From Parcubacteria group bacterium (GTDB lineage Bacteria; Patescibacteriota; Minisyncoccia; Moranbacterales; UBA2206): a DNA stretch of 64,000 nucleotides. Where the stretch lies: the NCBI GenBank assembly GCA_041661275.1, contig JBAZUU010000004.1, positions 71,480-135,479 of the forward strand. The letters run 5' to 3'. The notes below the pieces were generated by a model. The model was not told the DNA's origin and searched no databases. It saw only the letters and a list, made by a program, of their open reading frames with translations. Positions 3,775-62,975 of this stretch are shown here, piece after piece. The translations under genes were made by a program, and so were the position numbers. Each line of letters opens with the position of its first letter. The first letter of the stretch is position 1.

Positions 3775-3795
3775 TTGTTTGAAGATTTTAATTTG

Positions 3796-3869
3796 TGGGC
3801 GTATCTGGACTCGAACCAGAGACCTCGTCATTATCAGTGACGCGCTCTAACCAACTGAGCTATACGCCC
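3796..3869 (-). tRNA. tRNA-Ile (anticodon GAT)
   Basis: rc reads gggcgta/tagctcagttggttagagc/gcgtca-ctgataa-tgacg/aggtc/tctggttcgagtccaga/tacgccc. Cloverleaf is complete. No CCA is encoded. Confidence 0.85.
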
Positions 3870-3874
3870 GAATG

Positions 3875-3947
3875 TGGACTGTGCCGGACTCGAACCGGCC
3901 GCCTCCTGCGTGCAAAGCAGGCGCTCTACCAGATGAGCTAACAGCCC
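3875..3947 (-). tRNA. tRNA-Ala (anticodon TGC) with G3:U70
   Basis: rc reads gggctgt ta gctcatctggtagagc g cctgc tttgcac gcagg aggcg gccggttcgagtccggc acagtcc a. The G3:U70 Ala identity pair is present. Confidence 0.85.
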
Positions 3948-6245: not shown

Positions 6246-6334
6246 AACTAGATTTGATTTTTTAGCTGAAATATGCTATAATAGATAAAGCGGGTGAAAT
6301 ACCCGTTTTTATTTATTTTTATAAAAGCAATAAT

Positions 6335-6793
6335 ATGGCTATACGTATAGGAACAAATTTACCCAAAGGAACAGTGGCCGATGGCAAATCTTTAGGTTTT
6401 GATCCAAAGCGCAGTAAATTTATACAGGGACTTCTAAAAGATAAAGACGCAAGAGGAGCATTGGATAAACCTCAAGAAAGAAAACTGGTTTATGATGCTT
6501 TTAAAAGGCAGATGGGCAAAACTCCCAGAAATATAACCAACAGAGATGTGCGGGCTGTATTAGGAGCTTTTGGAACAGGAGAAATTGACCTGAAGGAAAG
6601 GCAGGCATTAGGAAAGGCGCTTCTTGGCAATGGATCATTTGTAAAGAAATATGATACTATTTCCAAAGAAAAGAAAGATTTTCTTTTAGGAAAAAGCAAC
6701 CCTGTAGTCGATCCTCGCAATGGAAGCTTGTCGACGACTAAACCCGGAAGTTCTTCAGGGAAAAGCGTCACTAGACATTCAGGTTTATTCTAA
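6335..6793 (+). CDS. Hypothetical protein (152 aa, basic, no recognised domain) occupying the position where rplJ is normally found
   Basis: Clean ORF preceded by a terminator and a TGCTATAAT -10 element. No similarity recognised by eye. Confidence 0.4.
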   Translation: MAIRIGTNLPKGTVADGKSLGFDPKRSKFIQGLLKDKDARGALDKPQERKLVYDAFKRQMGKTPRNITNRDVRAVLGAFGTGEIDLKERQALGKALLGNGSFVKKYDTISKEKKDFLLGKSNPVVDPRNGSLSTTKPGSSSGKSVTRHSGLF

Positions 6794-31020: not shown

Positions 31021-32184
31021 ATGAGGATCGGTATCGATGCAAGGACTATACTGAATCCGGAAAAAGGCGAGGCGATCGGGGTAGGGCATTATACCTACCA
31101 GTTGATCCGTCATCTTCTGGAGATCGATTCTGAAAACGAATATGTTTTGTTTTTTGATTTTCGCGTTCGGGAAAAAGACGTCAAAAAATTCACCAAGCTC
31201 AATGTGAAAATAAAATTCTACCCGTTTTCTGATTATAAAAAATATCTGCCCGGAGCCTACAATGAAATTTTGGGCATGGCGACACTCGCGCGAGAAAAAT
31301 TGGATGTTATTCATTCCACTTCTCCATCAAGCCGGATCCCGACCAGCTATCGCGGAAAAACTATCGTTACTGTGCATGATCTGGCTTCATACAAAGTGCC
31401 GGATATCTTTCCGAGCTTCAAAGTAGCAAAATACAAAGCGACAATGAACCTTATGGTATCCAAAGCCGACAAAATTATTGCCGTTTCCAATTCCACCAAA
31501 AAAGATCTGTGTGACATTTTTGGATGCAACGAGGATAAGATAAGAGTCATTTATTCCGGTTTTGATAAGCGCCTACTCGAAGAATCAAAGGTCAGCCGGG
31601 AAAAAGTTTTGGAAAAATATGGGATTAATGACGGCAAAAAATATATTCTGTTTTTGGGAACTCTTGAGCCGGTGAAAAATCTGACGAGACTTTTTGAGGC
31701 TTATAAAATATTTAAAGAGAAATGTGGTAAGGGAAGTGGGAGTTGTGATTATAAATTGGTCATTGCCGGAAAGAAAGGTTGGCTTGGGAAAGAATATCGG
31801 CAAATAGTAAAAGATCTCGGTATCGCCAAAGACGTAATTTTTACCGGTTATATAATCGGCGATGAGCTTGTGCCGCTTTTCAAAAACGCCGATTTTTTCG
31901 TGATGCCTTCACTTTATGAAGGATTTGGCACAACTGTTCTTGAAGCTTTTGCTACCGGCACGCCAGCCATCGTTTCGGGCGTTTCTTCCATTCCGGAACT
32001 AGCCGGAGATGCGGCGGTTCTCGTCAATCCGCTAAACACCCAGGAAATCGCTGATGCTATGGTTAAATTAGCAGGAGATGACAAATTGCGCTATGACCTG
32101 CGACAACTTGGTTTCCATCAGGTGGAAAAATTTGATTGGAAAAAGACGGCGAAAGAAACTCTTGAAGTTTATAAAAATGTATAA
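31021..32184 (+). CDS. Glycosyltransferase family 4 (GT-B fold)
   Basis: MRIGIDARTI... N-terminus and a C-terminal EGFGTTVLEAFATGTPAIVS GT1/GT4 motif. Confidence 0.8.
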   Translation: MRIGIDARTILNPEKGEAIGVGHYTYQLIRHLLEIDSENEYVLFFDFRVREKDVKKFTKLNVKIKFYPFSDYKKYLPGAYNEILGMATLAREKLDVIHSTSPSSRIPTSYRGKTIVTVHDLASYKVPDIFPSFKVAKYKATMNLMVSKADKIIAVSNSTKKDLCDIFGCNEDKIRVIYSGFDKRLLEESKVSREKVLEKYGINDGKKYILFLGTLEPVKNLTRLFEAYKIFKEKCGKGSGSCDYKLVIAGKKGWLGKEYRQIVKDLGIAKDVIFTGYIIGDELVPLFKNADFFVMPSLYEGFGTTVLEAFATGTPAIVSGVSSIPELAGDAAVLVNPLNTQEIADAMVKLAGDDKLRYDLRQLGFHQVEKFDWKKTAKETLEVYKNV

Positions 32185-35110
32185 GAAGATTGATCCTAAA
32201 ATGAATCTTCCAAAGATGGAGGAAGACGTTTTGAAATTTTGGGAGGAAAATAAAATATTTGAAAAGTCTTTAGAGAATAGAAAGGATGCGCCTTTGTATT
32301 CTTTTTATGATGGACCACCATTTGCCACTGGCCTTCCGCATCACGGGCATCTTTTAGCTTCAACCTCAAAAGATGTTGTTCCTCGCTTTTGGACAATGAA
32401 GGGATATAATGTTCCGCGAAGATGGGGATGGGATACCCACGGTTTGCCAATCGAAAATATTGTCGAGAAAAAATTAGGTTATAAGGGCAAGAAAGAAATC
32501 GAGGAAAATATTTCTAAATTTAATGAAGAAGCAAAAAACACAGTTCTTCAATTTGCCGATGAGTGGAAAAAAACTATCCGAAGAATTGGACGTTGGGTGG
32601 ATTTTGATAATTCCTATAAAACCATGGATTCAACTTTTATGGAATCAGTTTGGTGGGGGTTTAAGGAGTTGGATAAAAAAGGACTGGTTTATAAGGATTC
32701 AAGAATTTCGTTATACTGTCCGCATTGTGCTACACCACTTTCTAATTTCGAGATTGCTATGGACAATTCCTACAAGATGGATAAAGATGTTTCGATTTAT
32801 GTGAAAATTGGCTTAAAAGATAATCCAGGAACTTACTTTTTAGTCTGGACAACAACTCCCTGGACACTGTTAGCTAATGTTGCACTCGCTGTTGGAGAAA
32901 AAATAAAATATGTAGAAGTAAGATATGACAAAGAAAAATATATTATAGCCAAAGACCTTATAGATAAAGTAATTCCGGAAGATGATTATGAACTTATCAG
33001 CGAGTTTGATGGAAAGGATCTGATTGGAAAGGAATATGATCCGATTTTTCCTCATAATATCGAAAATGGGTACCGTGTGGTGGCGGGAGATTTTGTGAAT
33101 ATTGAAGATGGAACAGGGATAGTTCATTTAGCGCCAGCTTATGGGGAAGATGACTTTCAAGCGAGAAAGAAAAATAACTTGCCTCTAATTGAAAATGTTG
33201 ACGATGAAGGGCAATTCACGGAAGGGCAGTGGAAAGGAATGAATGTTTGGGATGCTAATTTTAAGGTTGTTGGGTATATCCATGAAAAAGGATTGTTATT
33301 CAAAAAAGAAAACATCACTCACTCTTATCCACATTGCTATCGATGTGACGCGAAATTAATTTATAAGGCTCAACCAGCCTGGTTTATAAAAGTATCAGAG
33401 TTTAAAGATGAGTTGATAAGCGAAAACGAAAATATTAACTGGCATCCAGAACATTTGAAACATGGAAGATTTTTGAACGGCTTGGAAAACGCGCCAGATT
33501 GGAATGTTTCACGCTCCCGATATTGGGGAAACCCGATGCCTATTTGGGAATGTGAAAAATGTAAAGAAATAGAAATTGTTGGATCATACGATGAGCTGGA
33601 AAAACTTTCTGGAAAAAAGCTCGATGATTATCACAGGCCATTTATTGACGAGATAACTTTTGACTGTGAAAAATGCAAAGGCAAGATGAAAAGAGTTTTA
33701 GATGTGTTTGATTGTTGGGTAGAATCAGGATCGATGCCTTTTGCAGAATTTCATTATCCTTTCGAAAACAAAGAGATATTTGAAAAAAGATTTCCGGCAC
33801 AATTTATATCCGAATATATCGCCCAGACGCGAGGCTGGTTTTATACTCTTCACGTTTTGTCGGTCGGACTTTTTGAAAAACCCAGTTTTATAAACGCAGT
33901 AACGACCGGGACGATTGCTGGAAGCGACGGAAAAAAAATGTCAAAGTCGCAAGGAAATTTTACTGATCCTAATGTCCTTCTTGATAAATATGGAGCAGAT
34001 TCTTTCAGATTTTATTTGATGCAATCTTCTCTTATGGAAGGGGAGAATCTAAATTTTCTCGATAAAGATCTGGAAGCTATCTTTAAAGGAATGTTTCGCA
34101 TGATGTGGAATTCATATTCGTTTTTTGTGCTTTATGCCAACGTCGACAAATGGAATCCTGATCCTAAAACCGGGTTTTGGGATGAATCCCAAAACCCGGT
34201 TTTAGGAAGCCGAAATATTTTAGACCGCTGGATAGTTTCTGAATTACAAACGCTCATTAAAGATGTTAATGAAAATATGGAAAATTATGAGTTGACCAGA
34301 GCAGCGAGGCTGTTTCCAAAATTTATCGACAATCTTTCCAATTGGTATATCAGGCGTTCCAGAAGGAGATTTTGGAAGTCGGAGTCCGACTCCGATAAAA
34401 AAGAAGCCTATGAAACTTTGCATTATGTTTTGGTGACGCTTTCAAAACTGATGGCGCCATTCACGCCGTTCATCGCGGAGGAGATATTTCGGAATTTATC
34501 AGACGCAGGGAACAAAAATTTTTGTTCCGTACACCTCCAGGATTTTCCGGTGGCCGATGAAAAATTGATTGATGAAAAATTAAATGAAGAGATGGCAAAA
34601 GTGAGAGACATTATCACACAAGGCTTGCAACTTCGCGCGATGGCGAAAATAAAAGTCAGACAGCCATTGGAAAAATTTTTGATTGCCAATTTGGAGCTTT
34701 CTCATAAAGAACTTTTGGAAATCATCCGTGAAGAAATGAATGTGAAGAAGGTTGAGATGGTGGAAAAAGTCAAAGAAGGGGAAAGCTGGATAATCGGGGA
34801 GATTGGGGAAATTAGCGTTGGTTTAAATATTGAGATCACCGAAGAACTTAGGCTGGAAGGTGTGGCGCGGGAGATAATCCGGCATATTCAGGAGATGCGA
34901 AAAGAGGCCGGGTATGATGTTGACAACCGGATAAAAGTATGCTATGCTGGTTGGTCAGTGGTTTTCGAGAAATTTGGCGATCTGATCGCCAAGGAAACTC
35001 TGGCTGATTCTTTACAAAATAATAAACCGGATCAATCCGATCTGGAAAAGGAATTTAATATTGAGGGGGAAAAAGTTCTTATTTATATAAAACGAACCAA
35101 AAATACATAA
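32177..35110 (+). CDS. ileS: Isoleucyl-tRNA synthetase
   Basis: PPFATGLPHHGHL (HIGH), KMSKSQGN (KMSKS), CP1 editing domain and zinc-finger C-terminus. The ATG overlaps the stop of the GT4 gene (ATGTATAA). Confidence 0.9.
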   Translation: MYKKIDPKMNLPKMEEDVLKFWEENKIFEKSLENRKDAPLYSFYDGPPFATGLPHHGHLLASTSKDVVPRFWTMKGYNVPRRWGWDTHGLPIENIVEKKLGYKGKKEIEENISKFNEEAKNTVLQFADEWKKTIRRIGRWVDFDNSYKTMDSTFMESVWWGFKELDKKGLVYKDSRISLYCPHCATPLSNFEIAMDNSYKMDKDVSIYVKIGLKDNPGTYFLVWTTTPWTLLANVALAVGEKIKYVEVRYDKEKYIIAKDLIDKVIPEDDYELISEFDGKDLIGKEYDPIFPHNIENGYRVVAGDFVNIEDGTGIVHLAPAYGEDDFQARKKNNLPLIENVDDEGQFTEGQWKGMNVWDANFKVVGYIHEKGLLFKKENITHSYPHCYRCDAKLIYKAQPAWFIKVSEFKDELISENENINWHPEHLKHGRFLNGLENAPDWNVSRSRYWGNPMPIWECEKCKEIEIVGSYDELEKLSGKKLDDYHRPFIDEITFDCEKCKGKMKRVLDVFDCWVESGSMPFAEFHYPFENKEIFEKRFPAQFISEYIAQTRGWFYTLHVLSVGLFEKPSFINAVTTGTIAGSDGKKMSKSQGNFTDPNVLLDKYGADSFRFYLMQSSLMEGENLNFLDKDLEAIFKGMFRMMWNSYSFFVLYANVDKWNPDPKTGFWDESQNPVLGSRNILDRWIVSELQTLIKDVNENMENYELTRAARLFPKFIDNLSNWYIRRSRRRFWKSESDSDKKEAYETLHYVLVTLSKLMAPFTPFIAEEIFRNLSDAGNKNFCSVHLQDFPVADEKLIDEKLNEEMAKVRDIITQGLQLRAMAKIKVRQPLEKFLIANLELSHKELLEIIREEMNVKKVEMVEKVKEGESWIIGEIGEISVGLNIEITEELRLEGVAREIIRHIQEMRKEAGYDVDNRIKVCYAGWSVVFEKFGDLIAKETLADSLQNNKPDQSDLEKEFNIEGEKVLIYIKRTKNT

Positions 35111-35120
35111 CCCAACCTCT

Positions 35121-35309
35121 ATGTCCCGAAAGGAGCTATTTATGGCTAAGATACTGGATTTTCCGAAAAAGATGGCTTCCGCCAATTCTTCAGATGTGGA
35201 TAGGGAAGAAACAGGAAAGACTCCTGAGTCCAGCAAGGAGGTGACACCTATTGAAATTGACTGGGAGCATATCAAAAAGAGAATGTTTCTGGATGACATC
35301 GGCGCCTAA
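35121..35309 (+). CDS. Hypothetical small acidic protein (62 aa)
   Basis: ORF directly after ileS with a moderate SD. Confidence 0.3.
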   Translation: MSRKELFMAKILDFPKKMASANSSDVDREETGKTPESSKEVTPIEIDWEHIKKRMFLDDIGA

Positions 35310-35336
35310 TTTTTCCGAATGCGAAAGGGGAGCGTC

Positions 35337-35474
35337 ATGAGACAATTTATTTCTGTGTGTGAATGGATTGACACTGCTCCGGAAGAGGTGTTTGTCGCGT
35401 TTCTTCTGGTTGCGACGTTGGTTATTATAGTCATCAACGATCTCCTCCGAAAAAAGGGGAGATCGGAAGTCTGA
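35337..35474 (+). CDS. Hypothetical small single-TM peptide (45 aa); a paralogous unit follows at ~35613
   Basis: SD aaggggag before the ATG. The upstream context atgcgaaaggggagcg is duplicated ahead of a second hydrophobic peptide ORF (MGLLLLGVWITGLGLAFGL...). Confidence 0.3.
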   Translation: MRQFISVCEWIDTAPEEVFVAFLLVATLVIIVINDLLRKKGRSEV

Positions 35475-36075
35475 CAGGGAGGGAGGGGAATGACAGTACT
35501 ATTAATCGCACTCGGTGTTTTTGTCTGGTTTCTCGTCGTTTCCGTGACGCGCCAAACCTTTAAGAAAAACAAAGAGACGGTGAACGTTTTTCCCGTATGC
35601 GAAAGGGGGCGATATGGGATTATTGCTTCTGGGCGTTTGGATAACAGGGTTGGGTCTTGCGTTTGGCCTTTGCCGATGCATGGCTCTCGTATCAATCCGT
35701 CTGGTTGAGGCCGAGGAACGGAGGCGGGGCGTGATCATTTCTTCTTCAGAAGAGCCTGCCGACTAAAGATTTATTTTTTGGCAGAGTATCTTCAAAAGTC
35801 TCTCGTGGAGAAATTTTCTGCGGGAGCTTTTTTTATTTCCCCTTGACAAAAATATAGGGCGGTTTTGGAAGAAATAAAAAATAGAAAAAAATGCGTGTTC
35901 AAGCTTGATTTTTTCTTTTAGACGTGCTATAATGGATATAGAAAGTTAAAGAAGTTGCTCGCGGGAGCCATAACCCTGTAAAGTTCCGCAACGGAACCAC
36001 GGGGCAAGAAACGGGTGTAGGCCCGTTTTAAGTATTTTCTGGGGGAACAATAACCCAGAGTTAATTATTGCCAAA

Positions 36076-36948
36076 ATGAAAAAAAATAATAGGAAAATAA
36101 AAATACTCAAACTATCAGTGGCAGTTGTCATAATGTTTTCATATTTGTCATATCCTGCCCTGGCTAAAGAAATAAATATTGCTAATGTTTTAGAGTTGGT
36201 GAATGAAGCTCGACAAAAAAATGGCGTAGCCACCTTGGATGAAAATCAAAAATTGGACAAGATCGCGGCGGACAAATTGGAAGACATGGTGAAGAATAAT
36301 TATTTTGCCCACACGTCTCCCAAGGGAGTCAATCCGTGGTTCTGGTATGAAAAAAATAGTTATGACTATAAGTACGCGGGAGAAAATCTGGCTATCAATT
36401 TTATGCGCGCCGAAGATCAGCAGGACGCCTGGATGAAAAGTCCGACTCACCGAAAAAATATTTTGAATCCCAACTATCAGGAAATTGGAGTTGCGGTCGG
36501 AGCGGGGGAGGTCAATGGACAGTTGGGAATAATTGCCGTTCAGGAATTTGGAACCTTGGCCAGCGCCGCCGGAGACGTTTCAAAAGAAGGGGAAAACTTT
36601 TCCGCGCACAAGGATGAGGGATTGGTCAAGGACGGCGTGAAGATAACCCCGCAAGTTTTGTCGGTGAAAGACTTTACCGAAGAGAAATTGAAAAATGAAA
36701 TTCCAGGAACCAAAAGCAATTCCAGTTGGACGAGAAATATATTGGACAAGTTCAACGCCAATAGTCCTGCTATGTATAACTACATGAGCCTTCTCGCCGT
36801 CTTCTTAATGCTTGCTTCAATCGTTCTGGCCTCAGCTTCATTTCTCACAGTAGCCGCGCATGAGATTATGATTTGCGATGAGTTGCGTCGAAAAGTGTAT
36901 GCCGACCACGAAGTATTAATAAAACATGACCGGATTTTGATATCGTAG
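36076..36948 (+). CDS. CAP/SCP/PR-1-domain secreted protein with N-terminal signal/TM and C-terminal TM segment
   Basis: VNEARQKNGVATLDENQKLDKIAADKLEDMVKNNYFAHTSP...GENLAINF...WMKSPTHRKNILNPNYQEIGVAV matches PF00188. Confidence 0.75.
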   Translation: MKKNNRKIKILKLSVAVVIMFSYLSYPALAKEINIANVLELVNEARQKNGVATLDENQKLDKIAADKLEDMVKNNYFAHTSPKGVNPWFWYEKNSYDYKYAGENLAINFMRAEDQQDAWMKSPTHRKNILNPNYQEIGVAVGAGEVNGQLGIIAVQEFGTLASAAGDVSKEGENFSAHKDEGLVKDGVKITPQVLSVKDFTEEKLKNEIPGTKSNSSWTRNILDKFNANSPAMYNYMSLLAVFLMLASIVLASASFLTVAAHEIMICDELRRKVYADHEVLIKHDRILIS

Positions 36949-38357: not shown

Positions 38358-39404
38358 ATGAAAAAAATCGTAGTGTCTGGTCTTGCTCTGGTGTTTCTTT
38401 TGGGCGCGTCGGGTGCGGCAGCGGGAGTAGAAAAAAATGGAATAGATTTTTCCAGGCCTATCAAAGTTGATGACCTGAAAATCGAAAAGAAGTTGATTCT
38501 TTCCAAAGAGCAACGAGCTTTAGGAGAAAAAGGTTCAAAAGGCAAGCCTACTCCACCGCCGGTGACAGTTGAAGGAGCGACCGGAGTTTTGGGAACGCCT
38601 CTGGCGCTGGGCGCCAAAAAATATGCCATTTTGGTCGGACTGAGCAATTATGCGGGAACCGCTAATGATTTATGCATCGATTCTCTAAAAACAACAGCCA
38701 ACTACCCAAATAGTTTATGCGCTGATGCCGATGCGGCTAATATGGAACTGACACTGAAAGATAAATATGGATATAATGATACAAATTCGACTATCTGGCG
38801 TTTCAGTGATGCTGATGCCAATTTTGCTGCGATCCAATCAGCCAAAGATTATATTTTAGCCAATGCCAAAGCTGGAGACGAAGTAGTTTTCTTTTTCAGC
38901 GGACATTCAGCCACTTCCAACAGAAATCTTTTCAAAAATGGCGACCGGTTGAATGTAGGTCTGGCTCTGTATAATCTGCCATATGATTCGCGAGAAGTCA
39001 TTTGGGACGGCTATCTCCAGAATTGGTTTGGCAGTTTAGCCACTAATCGCATTGTGTTTATTTTTGACACTTGCCATGCCGGTGGGCTGGCCAGTTATCT
39101 GCAAGGAACCGGTCGGGAAGTGGTGATGTCCAGCGCCGAAAATCAGTATTCCTATACATATTATTTGGGAGGGGAAAGCAATATGCTTGGAGAAGGATCG
39201 TTTGCTCACTTTTTTAACGTAGATGGGATGTATAATGGCTTGGCAGATGGTTATAACATGTTTGCGCCTAACGGAATTGACGGTAAAGTTGCGGTGGAAG
39301 AAGCCTATAGCTATGCTAAAAAATTCGTGCCCATCGATACTTCCAATCATCAGATTCCTGCGCTCAATGACAAGTTTACTGATGATTTAATGCTTGGTTA
39401 TTAA
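38358..39404 (+). CDS. Secreted caspase-family (peptidase C14, orthocaspase-like) protein
   Basis: Signal peptide. YAILVGLSNYAG ... GDEVVFFFSGHS (catalytic His) ... IVFIFDTCHAGG (catalytic Cys). Confidence 0.7.
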   Translation: MKKIVVSGLALVFLLGASGAAAGVEKNGIDFSRPIKVDDLKIEKKLILSKEQRALGEKGSKGKPTPPPVTVEGATGVLGTPLALGAKKYAILVGLSNYAGTANDLCIDSLKTTANYPNSLCADADAANMELTLKDKYGYNDTNSTIWRFSDADANFAAIQSAKDYILANAKAGDEVVFFFSGHSATSNRNLFKNGDRLNVGLALYNLPYDSREVIWDGYLQNWFGSLATNRIVFIFDTCHAGGLASYLQGTGREVVMSSAENQYSYTYYLGGESNMLGEGSFAHFFNVDGMYNGLADGYNMFAPNGIDGKVAVEEAYSYAKKFVPIDTSNHQIPALNDKFTDDLMLGY

Positions 39405-39515: not shown

Positions 39516-39851
39516 ATGCAAAGAAAAATGTATCCAAGCGATGTCACTCGCGAGCAATTTGAAAAAATCAGACCGATTCTCGATACGGCCTGCAAGAAAA
39601 CAAGGCCGAGAACCATCGACCAGTATGACGTGTTCTGCGCCCTGCTGTACCTGCTGAAATCCGGCTGCCAATGGCGAATGTTGCCATCGGATTTTCCCAA
39701 ATGGCGCACCGTCCATCATTACTTTTCTCTCTGGAGCCGGAAGGAAAACAAAAACACCCCCAGCGTATTGGAGGAGGTCTTAAAAAAAATTGGTCAGCGA
39801 CGAACGCTTGAGAAATGGGAGATTATGCAAAACGAGCTTGGGTATCGTTGA
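39516..39851 (+). CDS. IS5-family transposase OrfA (DUF4096 N-terminal domain)
   Basis: YDVFCALLYLLKSGCQWRMLPSDFPKWRTVHHYF is the hallmark of IS5/IS427 OrfA. Confidence 0.8.
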   Translation: MQRKMYPSDVTREQFEKIRPILDTACKKTRPRTIDQYDVFCALLYLLKSGCQWRMLPSDFPKWRTVHHYFSLWSRKENKNTPSVLEEVLKKIGQRRTLEKWEIMQNELGYR

Positions 39852-40311
39852 TGCCCAAAGCGTGAAAAATACTGAATCAGCGAGACAGAAAGGCTATGAC
39901 GCAGGCAAAAAAGTATCCGGTATTAAGCGGCATATTGTCGTGGACACCAATGGATTACCGCACGCAGTTACCATTACGACAGCTGATGTGACTGACAGAG
40001 ATGGAGCCATTAAGGCTTTTGAGACAAACAAAAAACACCTGTCGAAGGTGAAGAAAATACTGGCCGACGGCGGTTACACAGGCAAACCGTTTGCCGAAAA
40101 AGTGAAGAAGATTTTGAAAGCGGAAACAGAAATTGCTAAAAGAAATGAATTGCATACATTCAAAGTTATTCCGAAAAGATGGGTGGTGGAAAGAAGTTTC
40201 TCTTGGTTGGAAAAATGTCGGAGATTATGGAAAAATTGCGAAAGAAAACTTAATTCAAGTTTACAAATGATGGTTCTGTGTTTCGTGAGAGTTTTGTTGA
40301 AAAGATGTTGA
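39790..40311 (+). CDS. IS5-family transposase OrfB (DDE domain), expressed by programmed frameshift from OrfA
   Basis: GIVDAQSVKNTESA...GIKRHIVVDTNGLPHAV...ADGGYTG...VVERSFSWLEKCRRL is the DDE_Tnp_1 signature. Confidence 0.8.
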   Translation: MVSDERLRNGRLCKTSLGIVDAQSVKNTESARQKGYDAGKKVSGIKRHIVVDTNGLPHAVTITTADVTDRDGAIKAFETNKKHLSKVKKILADGGYTGKPFAEKVKKILKAETEIAKRNELHTFKVIPKRWVVERSFSWLEKCRRLWKNCERKLNSSLQMMVLCFVRVLLKRC

Positions 40312-62321: not shown

Positions 62322-62975
62322 ATGTACGCAACAGTAATTTCGATAGGAAGCATGGTATCCATGTGGTTCTATTCCGTTAGGAATTACTGGGAGCGGGTCA
62401 TAATTCCGTTTCTCAGAATAATTCCTGCCGAGATAAAACCAGACCACTTGAGCTGGTCGCGAGTGCCACTGGGATTTCTGGTAACTTTTTTCCTGTTTTT
62501 TTATCCAGTGCGATTGGTAGCTAATATGCTATATATTCTGGCATGGCTAACAGACATCCTGGATGGAGCATTGGCGCGGTACCGGAAACAATTTTCTATT
62601 TGGGGCTGTCGGATCGATCCTATTACCGACAAGGTTTTAAATGACTCAATTTTTATTGGCTATGGATGGTTTTGGCGAAATGATCCTGAGTTTTCTGTAA
62701 TGTTTTGGACAATTGTAGTTATAGTTGTTGCTGATCTCATTACCTTGGTTGGCGCCGGATTAATGTCTTACTTTATCGAAGAACGTGTTCAGGCCAACAT
62801 TTTTGGCAAATGGAAATTTGGCGCTCAATGCACTGGCTGTACAATGCTTATTTTAGAATGGGTTAATTCTGCAAGGCCGGTTTTGGAAGTCGCGGCGGCT
62901 TTGGGAATCTTAAGCGCTGTCAGTTATTGCTATACCGGATGTGTCAAAATTCGAGCCAGAACCGGCAGGTCTTAA
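62322..62975 (+). CDS. CDP-alcohol phosphatidyltransferase family protein
   Basis: DILDGALARYRKQFSIWGCRIDPITDKV matches the D-x2-DG-x2-AR...G-x3-D-x3-D motif. Multi-TM. Confidence 0.7.
   Translation: MYATVISIGSMVSMWFYSVRNYWERVIIPFLRIIPAEIKPDHLSWSRVPLGFLVTFFLFFYPVRLVANMLYILAWLTDILDGALARYRKQFSIWGCRIDPITDKVLNDSIFIGYGWFWRNDPEFSVMFWTIVVIVVADLITLVGAGLMSYFIEERVQANIFGKWKFGAQCTGCTMLILEWVNSARPVLEVAAALGILSAVSYCYTGCVKIRARTGRS

Follow-up and report, generated by a model that had tools for sequence, protein, structure and literature searches.

Introduction

Several small bacterial proteins, namely AcrZ, MgrB, KdpF, MgtS and CydX, are single-pass proteins that modulate larger membrane proteins. Another kind of short peptide is found in the leaderless multi-peptide bacteriocin operons, of which aureocin A70 and enterocin L50 are examples. 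Next to ileS, the usual neighbour is LspA. In AT-rich genomes, islands of high GC content often turn out to be RNA genes. The genomes of CPR bacteria (Patescibacteria) are small and encode many membrane proteins that lack annotation, which possibly play a role in an attachment-dependent lifestyle.

The locus described here lies behind ileS in a Moranbacteria-like CPR bacterium, within a 64 kb stretch of DNA that was analysed as a whole and is referred to as the window. With moderate confidence, positions 35111-35836 (about 720 nt) are read as a lineage-specific cassette of four mini-genes appended to the 3' end of ileS, the GC-rich island of the region being the GC-richer part of this cassette. 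The cluster is probably real, and it would then be an ordinary orphan small-gene cluster and not a recognisable toxin, bacteriocin or RNA.

Layout of the locus

The genes and signals that frame the cassette are as follows.

32132-35110, + strand: ileS (isoleucyl-tRNA synthetase), open reading frame, upstream gene of the predicted transcription unit
35800-35836, + strand: predicted intrinsic terminator from the terminator scan, 12-bp stem and a run of seven T (-17.7 kcal/mol, z -2.1)
35905-36075, + strand: promoter of the CAP-domain gene, TTGATT-17-TATAAT (35905-35933), with its conserved leader, from the promoter scan and the relatives
36076-36948, + strand: CAP-domain gene (Pfam CAP), from the gene call, the next gene after the cassette

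The called product of ileS has 992 aa and carries the Pfam domains tRNA-synt_1, Anticodon_1 and DUF5915, and its homologues are named isoleucyl-tRNA synthetase. Behind it, on the same strand as ileS, four ORFs termed ORF55, pep1, pep2 and pep3 follow one another head to tail. A strong Shine-Dalgarno sequence (SD) precedes each of them, and gaps of 15-31 nt are present between ileS and the successive ORFs. The initial annotation had described a GC-rich island after ileS, and this was borne out, as the GC content at 35311-35770 is 0.491 (49%) against a window mean of 0.405 (sd 0.033, 460-nt windows), a value attained by only 0.5% of the 460-nt windows.

The terminator scan returned no site between ileS and the cassette, and the first terminator-like site 3' of ileS is the one at 35800-35836, directly after pep3. 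Promoter-like sites were found at 34920-34948 (10/12 matches to consensus) and 35257-35284 (9/12). Since no predicted terminator separates the two, we infer that the cassette would be co-transcribed with ileS, although these two promoter-like sites speak against it. The promoter and leader of the CAP-domain gene form the right-hand edge of a slot that is variable among relatives.

The called neighbours of the locus are ArgS, a GT4 glycosyltransferase, IleS, the CAP-domain protein, a C14 peptidase and a DDE transposase. The caspase-like Peptidase_C14 gene (38358-39404 of the window) is syntenic with the CAP gene in the related loci L006 and L008 as well, and the DDE_Tnp_1 transposase (39790-40311) lies just downstream of it.

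The gene calls available for the cassette differ from one another. The Prodigal-type calls in three assemblies comprise ORF55 and pep2, the NCBI call comprises pep1, and pep3 is called by none. The three cassette-bearing assemblies are 100% identical across 2 kb and thus hold no within-lineage variation for selection analysis. The contig comes from the samples ERZ27249449, SRR6484324 and SRR18595301.

Small open reading frames of the cassette

The four ORFs, and one hairpin within them, are listed below.

35142-35309, + strand: ORF55, 55 aa, acidic, soluble, net charge -3, with the SD AAGGAG 6 nt upstream
35337-35474, + strand: pep1, predicted 45-aa single-pass membrane peptide, NCBI hypothetical protein WCV59_03170, from the ORF list and the census
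35438-35465, + strand: strong 8-10-bp hairpin, CGATCTCC...GGAGATCG, in the 3'-terminal part of pep1, seen in the sequence and present in the fold
35490-35708, + strand: pep2, 72 aa, predicted N-terminal transmembrane (TM) helix and a basic stretch, with the SD GGGAGGGAGGGG
35614-35766, + strand: pep3, predicted 50-aa single-pass membrane peptide with the motif GLCRCMA and a charged tail, from the ORF and its orthologue

The three short ORFs (pep1, pep2 and pep3) had been recognised from the outset, and they exist as stated, each behind a G-rich SD. ORF55, which starts 31 nt past the ileS stop, is a fourth member of the cassette that had escaped the initial annotation. In pep1, an acidic N-terminus is followed by the predicted TM helix VFVAFLLVATLVIIVI and a basic C-terminus. 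In a census of both strands of the 64 kb (that is, 128 kb of sequence), 13 ATG ORFs of 30-90 aa with a strong SD were counted. Only three of these contain a 17-residue stretch with a Kyte-Doolittle value of at least 2.0, and they are exactly pep1, pep2 and pep3; the maximum over 17 residues is 2.99 in pep1 and 2.16 in pep3. The clustering of three SD-led TM ORFs is far beyond chance.

Homologues of pep1, pep2 and ORF55 were found in none of the fetched loci, and no matches to them were returned from Pfam, PHROGs, NCBIfam, PADLOC, IMG/VR, or the phage and plasmid records. Their standing as translated genes is a prediction drawn from the SDs, the TM helices and the clustering statistics. Residues ~37-72 of pep2 overlap the second copy of a direct repeat as well as pep3, and this part may not be functional. 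The overlap of pep2 and pep3 extends over 95 nt in different frames, which is unusual.

It was also observed that ORF55, pep1 and pep2 share one reading frame (35121-35708), broken only by the TAA at 35307-35309 and the TGA at 35472-35474. The common frame may be a matter of chance (1 in 9) or the trace of a broken longer gene. A recoding or readthrough of the TGA that would fuse pep1 and pep2 was considered and rejected, as TGA ends ordinary long genes of the window and each ORF has its own SD. Similarly, a minus-strand ORF of 129 aa at 35306-35695, which has a TTG start and neither an SD nor a family, was set aside as a by-product of GC-rich sense coding. The hairpin at the 3' end of pep1 was rejected as a terminator, there being no T-run after it; it is possibly an mRNA stability or processing element.

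The repeated initiation region

A direct repeat links the starts of pep1 and pep3.

35310-35330, + strand: repeat copy 1, TTTTTCCGAATGCGAAAGGGG, initiation region of pep1, with weaker similarity reaching 35347
35588-35608, + strand: repeat copy 2, TTTTCCCGTATGCGAAAGGGG, initiation region of pep3, with weaker similarity reaching 35624

The two copies match at 19/21 positions with an exact core of 12 nt, and none of 300 shuffles of the cassette attained this match. A weaker similarity extends to 38 nt at 79%, past the ATG. Thus, the shared upstream context described in the initial annotation is a real direct repeat, though the coordinates given for the ATG of its motif were one base off and should read 35319 and 35597. 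The further claim that the peptides themselves are duplicated did not hold, as pep1 and pep3 are no more alike than shuffles at either the DNA or the protein level, and the repeat is limited to the 21-38 nt of the initiation region.

The 3' part of the repeat, CGAAAGGRG (9 of the 21 nt), is the usual strong SD of this genome; CGAAAGGGGAG also serves as the ribosome-binding site of the CDP-alcohol phosphatidyltransferase gene at 62322. What is peculiar to the cassette is limited to the dozen bases on the 5' side. In the fold, the copy 2 element is able to pair with the pep3 start codon, through a local hairpin in which CCCGUAU pairs with AUAUGGG (-13.1 kcal/mol, z -1.5). The hairpins of the two initiation regions differ from each other and are not significant (z -0.07 and -1.5). 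The 21-mer is best read as a duplicated translation-initiation region, composed of 12 bases specific to the cassette and the consensus SD of this genome. Its probable source is a local duplication or recombination event, in which pep1 and pep2 were placed ahead of the older pep3.

pep3 and its orthologue

Among the members of the cassette, an orthologue was found for pep3 alone, at 1829-1984 of locus L009. The two proteins are 41% identical over 41 aa, with an alignment score of 61 against 20.4 +/- 4.0 in shuffles (z ~10). Over 36 aligned codons, the differences fall 18/9/29 on the first, second and third positions; the alignment was made at the protein level, which somewhat favours the third-position pattern, but the signal is still strong. 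As many as 14 of the 17 identical residues are encoded by different codons, and GLCRCMA is retained despite six third-position changes. Because the substitutions are so distributed over the codon positions and the conserved residues are kept with different codons, pep3 is judged to be coding and to evolve as a protein. The orthologue in L009-L011 is also syntenic, being located just ahead of the terminator and the CAP promoter.

The L009 copy opens with ATG TAA (1829-1834), a stop at the second codon, and the same is seen in L010 and L011. The conserved SD GGAGGCGAT precedes it, and the protein similarity resumes beyond the stop. Either an internal ATG is used as the start (37 aa), or the copy may be undergoing recent pseudogenisation or decay; pep3 may therefore be dispensable or decaying in the L009 lineage.

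The search of pep3 against 1.84 billion representative proteins gave no match, which is expected for an uncalled ORF of 50 aa, yet lends no support. A word-index search of 5.8 billion proteins missed the pep1 and pep2 entries that are present in that index, so short proteins are beyond its reach and its silence does not speak for absence. The check on conservation that had been proposed at the outset came out divided: pep1 and pep2 have no homologue in the small set of relatives, whereas pep3 is conserved in L009.

Variation behind ileS among relatives

The relatives were reached via the flanking CAP protein and contigs, as well as via ileS, and amount to about seven sparsely sampled lineages. 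Judged by IleS, the closest representative of a species is a Candidatus Moranbacteria MAG with 54% identity. The ileS scans of genome and metagenome collections gave relatives at 42-54% identity, among which L004 ends at ileS, while L005 and L007 are uninformative. The content of the slot in the others is as follows.

L015 (CAP 78% identity): empty slot; homology resumes at CTTGACAAAA, just past the terminator of the window
L008/L014 (CAP 79-81%): one 80-aa ORF with TM helix and zinc ribbon
L009-L011 (CAP 72%): 78-aa zinc-ribbon ORF, then the pep3 orthologue
L013 (CAP 73%): 48-aa TM ORF
L006 (IleS 53%): 83-aa and 52-aa TM ORFs
L018 (found via the IleS C-terminus): ileS, a strong-SD 55-aa TM ORF, then recO
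L017 (found via the IleS C-terminus): ileS followed directly by recO, with nothing between

The synteny of ileS, slot, CAP promoter, CAP gene and C14 peptidase gene is conserved, but the content of the slot is not. Thus, on comparison of the sequences, the slot that separates ileS from the following gene is hypervariable among the relatives reached. In two lineages, pep3 is its 3' anchor. We do not claim that the TM mini-ORFs of all these lineages belong to a single family; pep3 against the 48-aa ORF of L013 gives p 0.016, and [AG][LF]C near the helix end is common to the mini-ORFs, both being weak hints. A further CAP relative (P0010, JGI contig; L016 1-276) has a 5'-truncated CAP gene fused to unrelated sequence, likely the product of a chimeric assembly or a rearrangement.

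A tentative and rather unlikely extension of these observations is that, in this Moranbacteria clade, the 3' end of ileS acts as a hotspot of turnover: mini-genes that are strongly translated and unrelated to one another would be acquired, exchanged and lost there time and again, carried along by the mRNA of an essential gene. The mini-genes meant here are Cys-containing single-pass membrane peptides and zinc-ribbon miniproteins. If this were true, the ileS slot would serve either as a nursery in which new small proteins arise or as a rapidly evolving set of tools with which an episymbiotic CPR bacterium interacts with its host or competitors, and the window cassette, in which an initiation region is duplicated, would show one moment of such turnover.

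The leader of the CAP-domain gene

Beyond the slot, the promoter of the CAP-domain gene is conserved as TTGATT-17-TGCTATAAT in the window (35905-36075), L008 (2895-2978), L009 (2046-2123), L013 (2864-2934), L015 (483-566) and L006 (7644-7726). It is followed by a variable hairpin, whose arms appear compensatory by eye (GGCT/AGCC, GGG/CCC, GCC/GGC), and by a hairpin resembling a terminator, ACGGGTG-N-GCCCGTTTT; the stem sequence of the latter does not vary, even among relatives at 53% IleS identity. The leader has no match in Rfam, and it could be an attenuator, a riboswitch-like leader or a short RNA.

The same arrangement, TGCTATAAT and then GCGGGTGAAATACCCGTTTTT, is found at 6274-6335 of the window, ahead of a 152-aa ORF (6335-6793) that has no Pfam family. 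Because it precedes this ORF as well, the CGGGTG...CCCGTTTT hairpin close to the promoter may be a regulatory element that recurs in this genome. Past the leader hairpin and ahead of the CAP start codon, TACGAA(A/T)A repeats are present in L006 (7727-7770), L009 (2135-2175) and L013 (2950-2990) and absent from the window; they are possibly binding sites of a regulator.

Alternative explanations

Four other explanations of the island have been weighed. In one of them, it would be an unrecognised structured non-coding RNA, in line with the GC excess of 35311-35770 and with a fold of 536 nt that has a z of -2.9. Such an RNA is, however, contradicted on several sides: Rfam gives no family at E <= 1 for 35110-35840, the nucleotides of the cassette are conserved at this position in no relative and are deleted in L015, and the sole conserved piece, pep3, varies mostly at third codon positions. 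A match to a known non-coding RNA, which would have spoken against the peptides, was accordingly not obtained, and the structured-RNA reading is already largely refuted and extremely improbable. At the gathering score, Rfam finds only two tRNAs in the whole window; these are tRNA-Ile(GAT) and tRNA-Ala(TGC), adjacent at 3795-3947 on the minus strand, a pair that is typical of rRNA operon spacers, and no rRNA was detected in the window. Another suggestion is that the cassette is mostly non-functional, consisting either of what remains of a decaying gene that was inserted or formerly present, or of fortuitous ORFs in a variable ileS 3' UTR, with at most pep3 being a gene now or once. The cassette is indeed missing from L015 and replaced by unrelated ORFs in other relatives; ORF55, pep1 and pep2 form one frame broken only by two stops, and pep2 continues into pep3; the L009 copy of pep3 has an early stop; and pep1, pep2 and ORF55 are without homologues anywhere searched. 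Nevertheless, each ORF has an ATG and its own strong SD at proper spacing, three independent TM helices occur in 430 nt and are unique in the window, three ORFs fall in one frame with a chance of 1 in 9, and the conceptual pep1-pep2-pep3 fusion matches no Pfam family, LspA included. Decay or chance as the main origin of the cassette is thus considered unlikely. As for particular origins that were tried, a remnant of LspA was rejected, since Peptidase_A8 is matched neither by the single peptides nor by the conceptual fusion at E <= 10 in Pfam, and so was a phage, plasmid or defence origin, for which the phage, plasmid, IMG/VR, PHROGs and PADLOC collections gave no matches.

The remaining two explanations see the peptides as toxins or as bacteriocin-like products. 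In a system resembling the type I toxin-antitoxin modules, membrane-damaging peptides would be held in check by the repeated 5' element, by an antisense RNA, or by both. The size of the peptides and their single TM helix (pep1 45 aa, pep3 50 aa) agree with this, as do the repeated element beside two of them, the ability of its second copy to pair with the pep3 start codon, a perfect TATAAT on the minus strand (35429-35424) and the patchy distribution of the locus. However, chance alone would give a single TATAAT roughly once in a few kb, and the consensus scan finds no minus-strand promoter-like site within 35310-35770; the hairpin is neither conserved between the repeat copies nor significant; the peptide genes, which follow an essential gene in a predicted operon, lack both a promoter and a long structured 5' UTR of their own; and the peptides have no family match in Pfam, NCBIfam or PADLOC. 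Such a module is therefore quite improbable. It is very improbable, too, that an episymbiotic CPR cell uses the products against its host or competitors, as leaderless or multi-peptide bacteriocin-like secreted peptides or as immunity peptides. Tandem hydrophobic peptides of 45-50 aa with strong SDs resemble leaderless multi-peptide operons, and the locus is strain-variable; a faint YxzE-like Pfam match (E 0.089) appears as well, but only for the artificial fusion and far below threshold. Against it, pep1 and pep3 have a net charge of -1 and are not cationic, no Gly-Gly pair is present in either, so that a double-glycine leader is missing, no ABC transporter, C39 peptidase or immunity genes occur among the called neighbours, and the plasmid and phage collections gave no matches. 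Thus, the analogies to toxins and bacteriocins drawn in the initial annotation are not supported, while its broader idea of small membrane peptides is retained on the strength of the SDs, the TM helices that are unique in the window and the conservation of pep3.

Proposed function and significance

For the preferred reading, that of a cassette of small genes appended to ileS, a plausible course of events can be outlined. The four ORFs would be read from the ileS transcript, and their translation would proceed by SD-driven re-initiation or by coupling. On its way to the end of pep2, a ribosome passes over the start region of pep3, whose weak hairpin it would open. Small accessory membrane proteins would result, together with one soluble partner. 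The peptides may be inserted N-out/C-in, because basic residues follow each helix, and, by analogy with the characterised bacterial small membrane proteins, they may bind or modulate a larger membrane protein or the envelope. No partner membrane protein is encoded among the called neighbours of the cassette. Of the features expected from a small regulatory membrane protein, a predicted TM helix and an SD are found in pep1, pep2 and pep3, and conservation is found for pep3 in one other lineage.

By itself, the cassette neither reveals a new mechanism nor gives access to a long-standing question. It does show how small proteins escape annotation, because the two gene callers disagree and both omit pep3, the sole ORF that is supported comparatively. 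If broader sampling confirms the pattern, the slot distal to ileS would provide a tractable site for following the gain and loss of small proteins.

Comparison with known systems

In the ileS-lspA operon of many bacteria, as at this locus, a coding region for membrane protein lies directly downstream of ileS and is co-oriented with it. However, the cassette has three separate one-helix ORFs, whereas signal peptidase II is a four-helix enzyme, and there is no similarity between them. With the operons of aureocin A70 and enterocin L50, the cassette shares tandem SD-led ORFs of ~30-50 aa that encode hydrophobic peptides; it differs from them in that pep1 and pep3 are not cationic, transporter and immunity genes are lacking nearby, and homology is absent. 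The type I toxins (Hok, Ldr, Ibs, Fst, TisB, Zor, ShoB) are likewise small hydrophobic peptides, sometimes in tandem and with a conserved upstream regulatory sequence, but the cassette would be operonic with an essential gene and has no detected antisense RNA gene.

Among the small regulatory proteins, AcrZ, MgrB, KdpF, MgtS and CydX are usually encoded near their partner complex or belong to a specific regulon, whereas the cassette adjoins ileS and a CAP-domain gene, and its peptides have no sequence similarity to any of these proteins. The likeness lies in the architecture: like them, the cassette peptides are of the 30-60 aa class, with one predicted TM helix and flanking charges, and they are SD-led genes of the kind that is often lineage-restricted and missed by gene callers.
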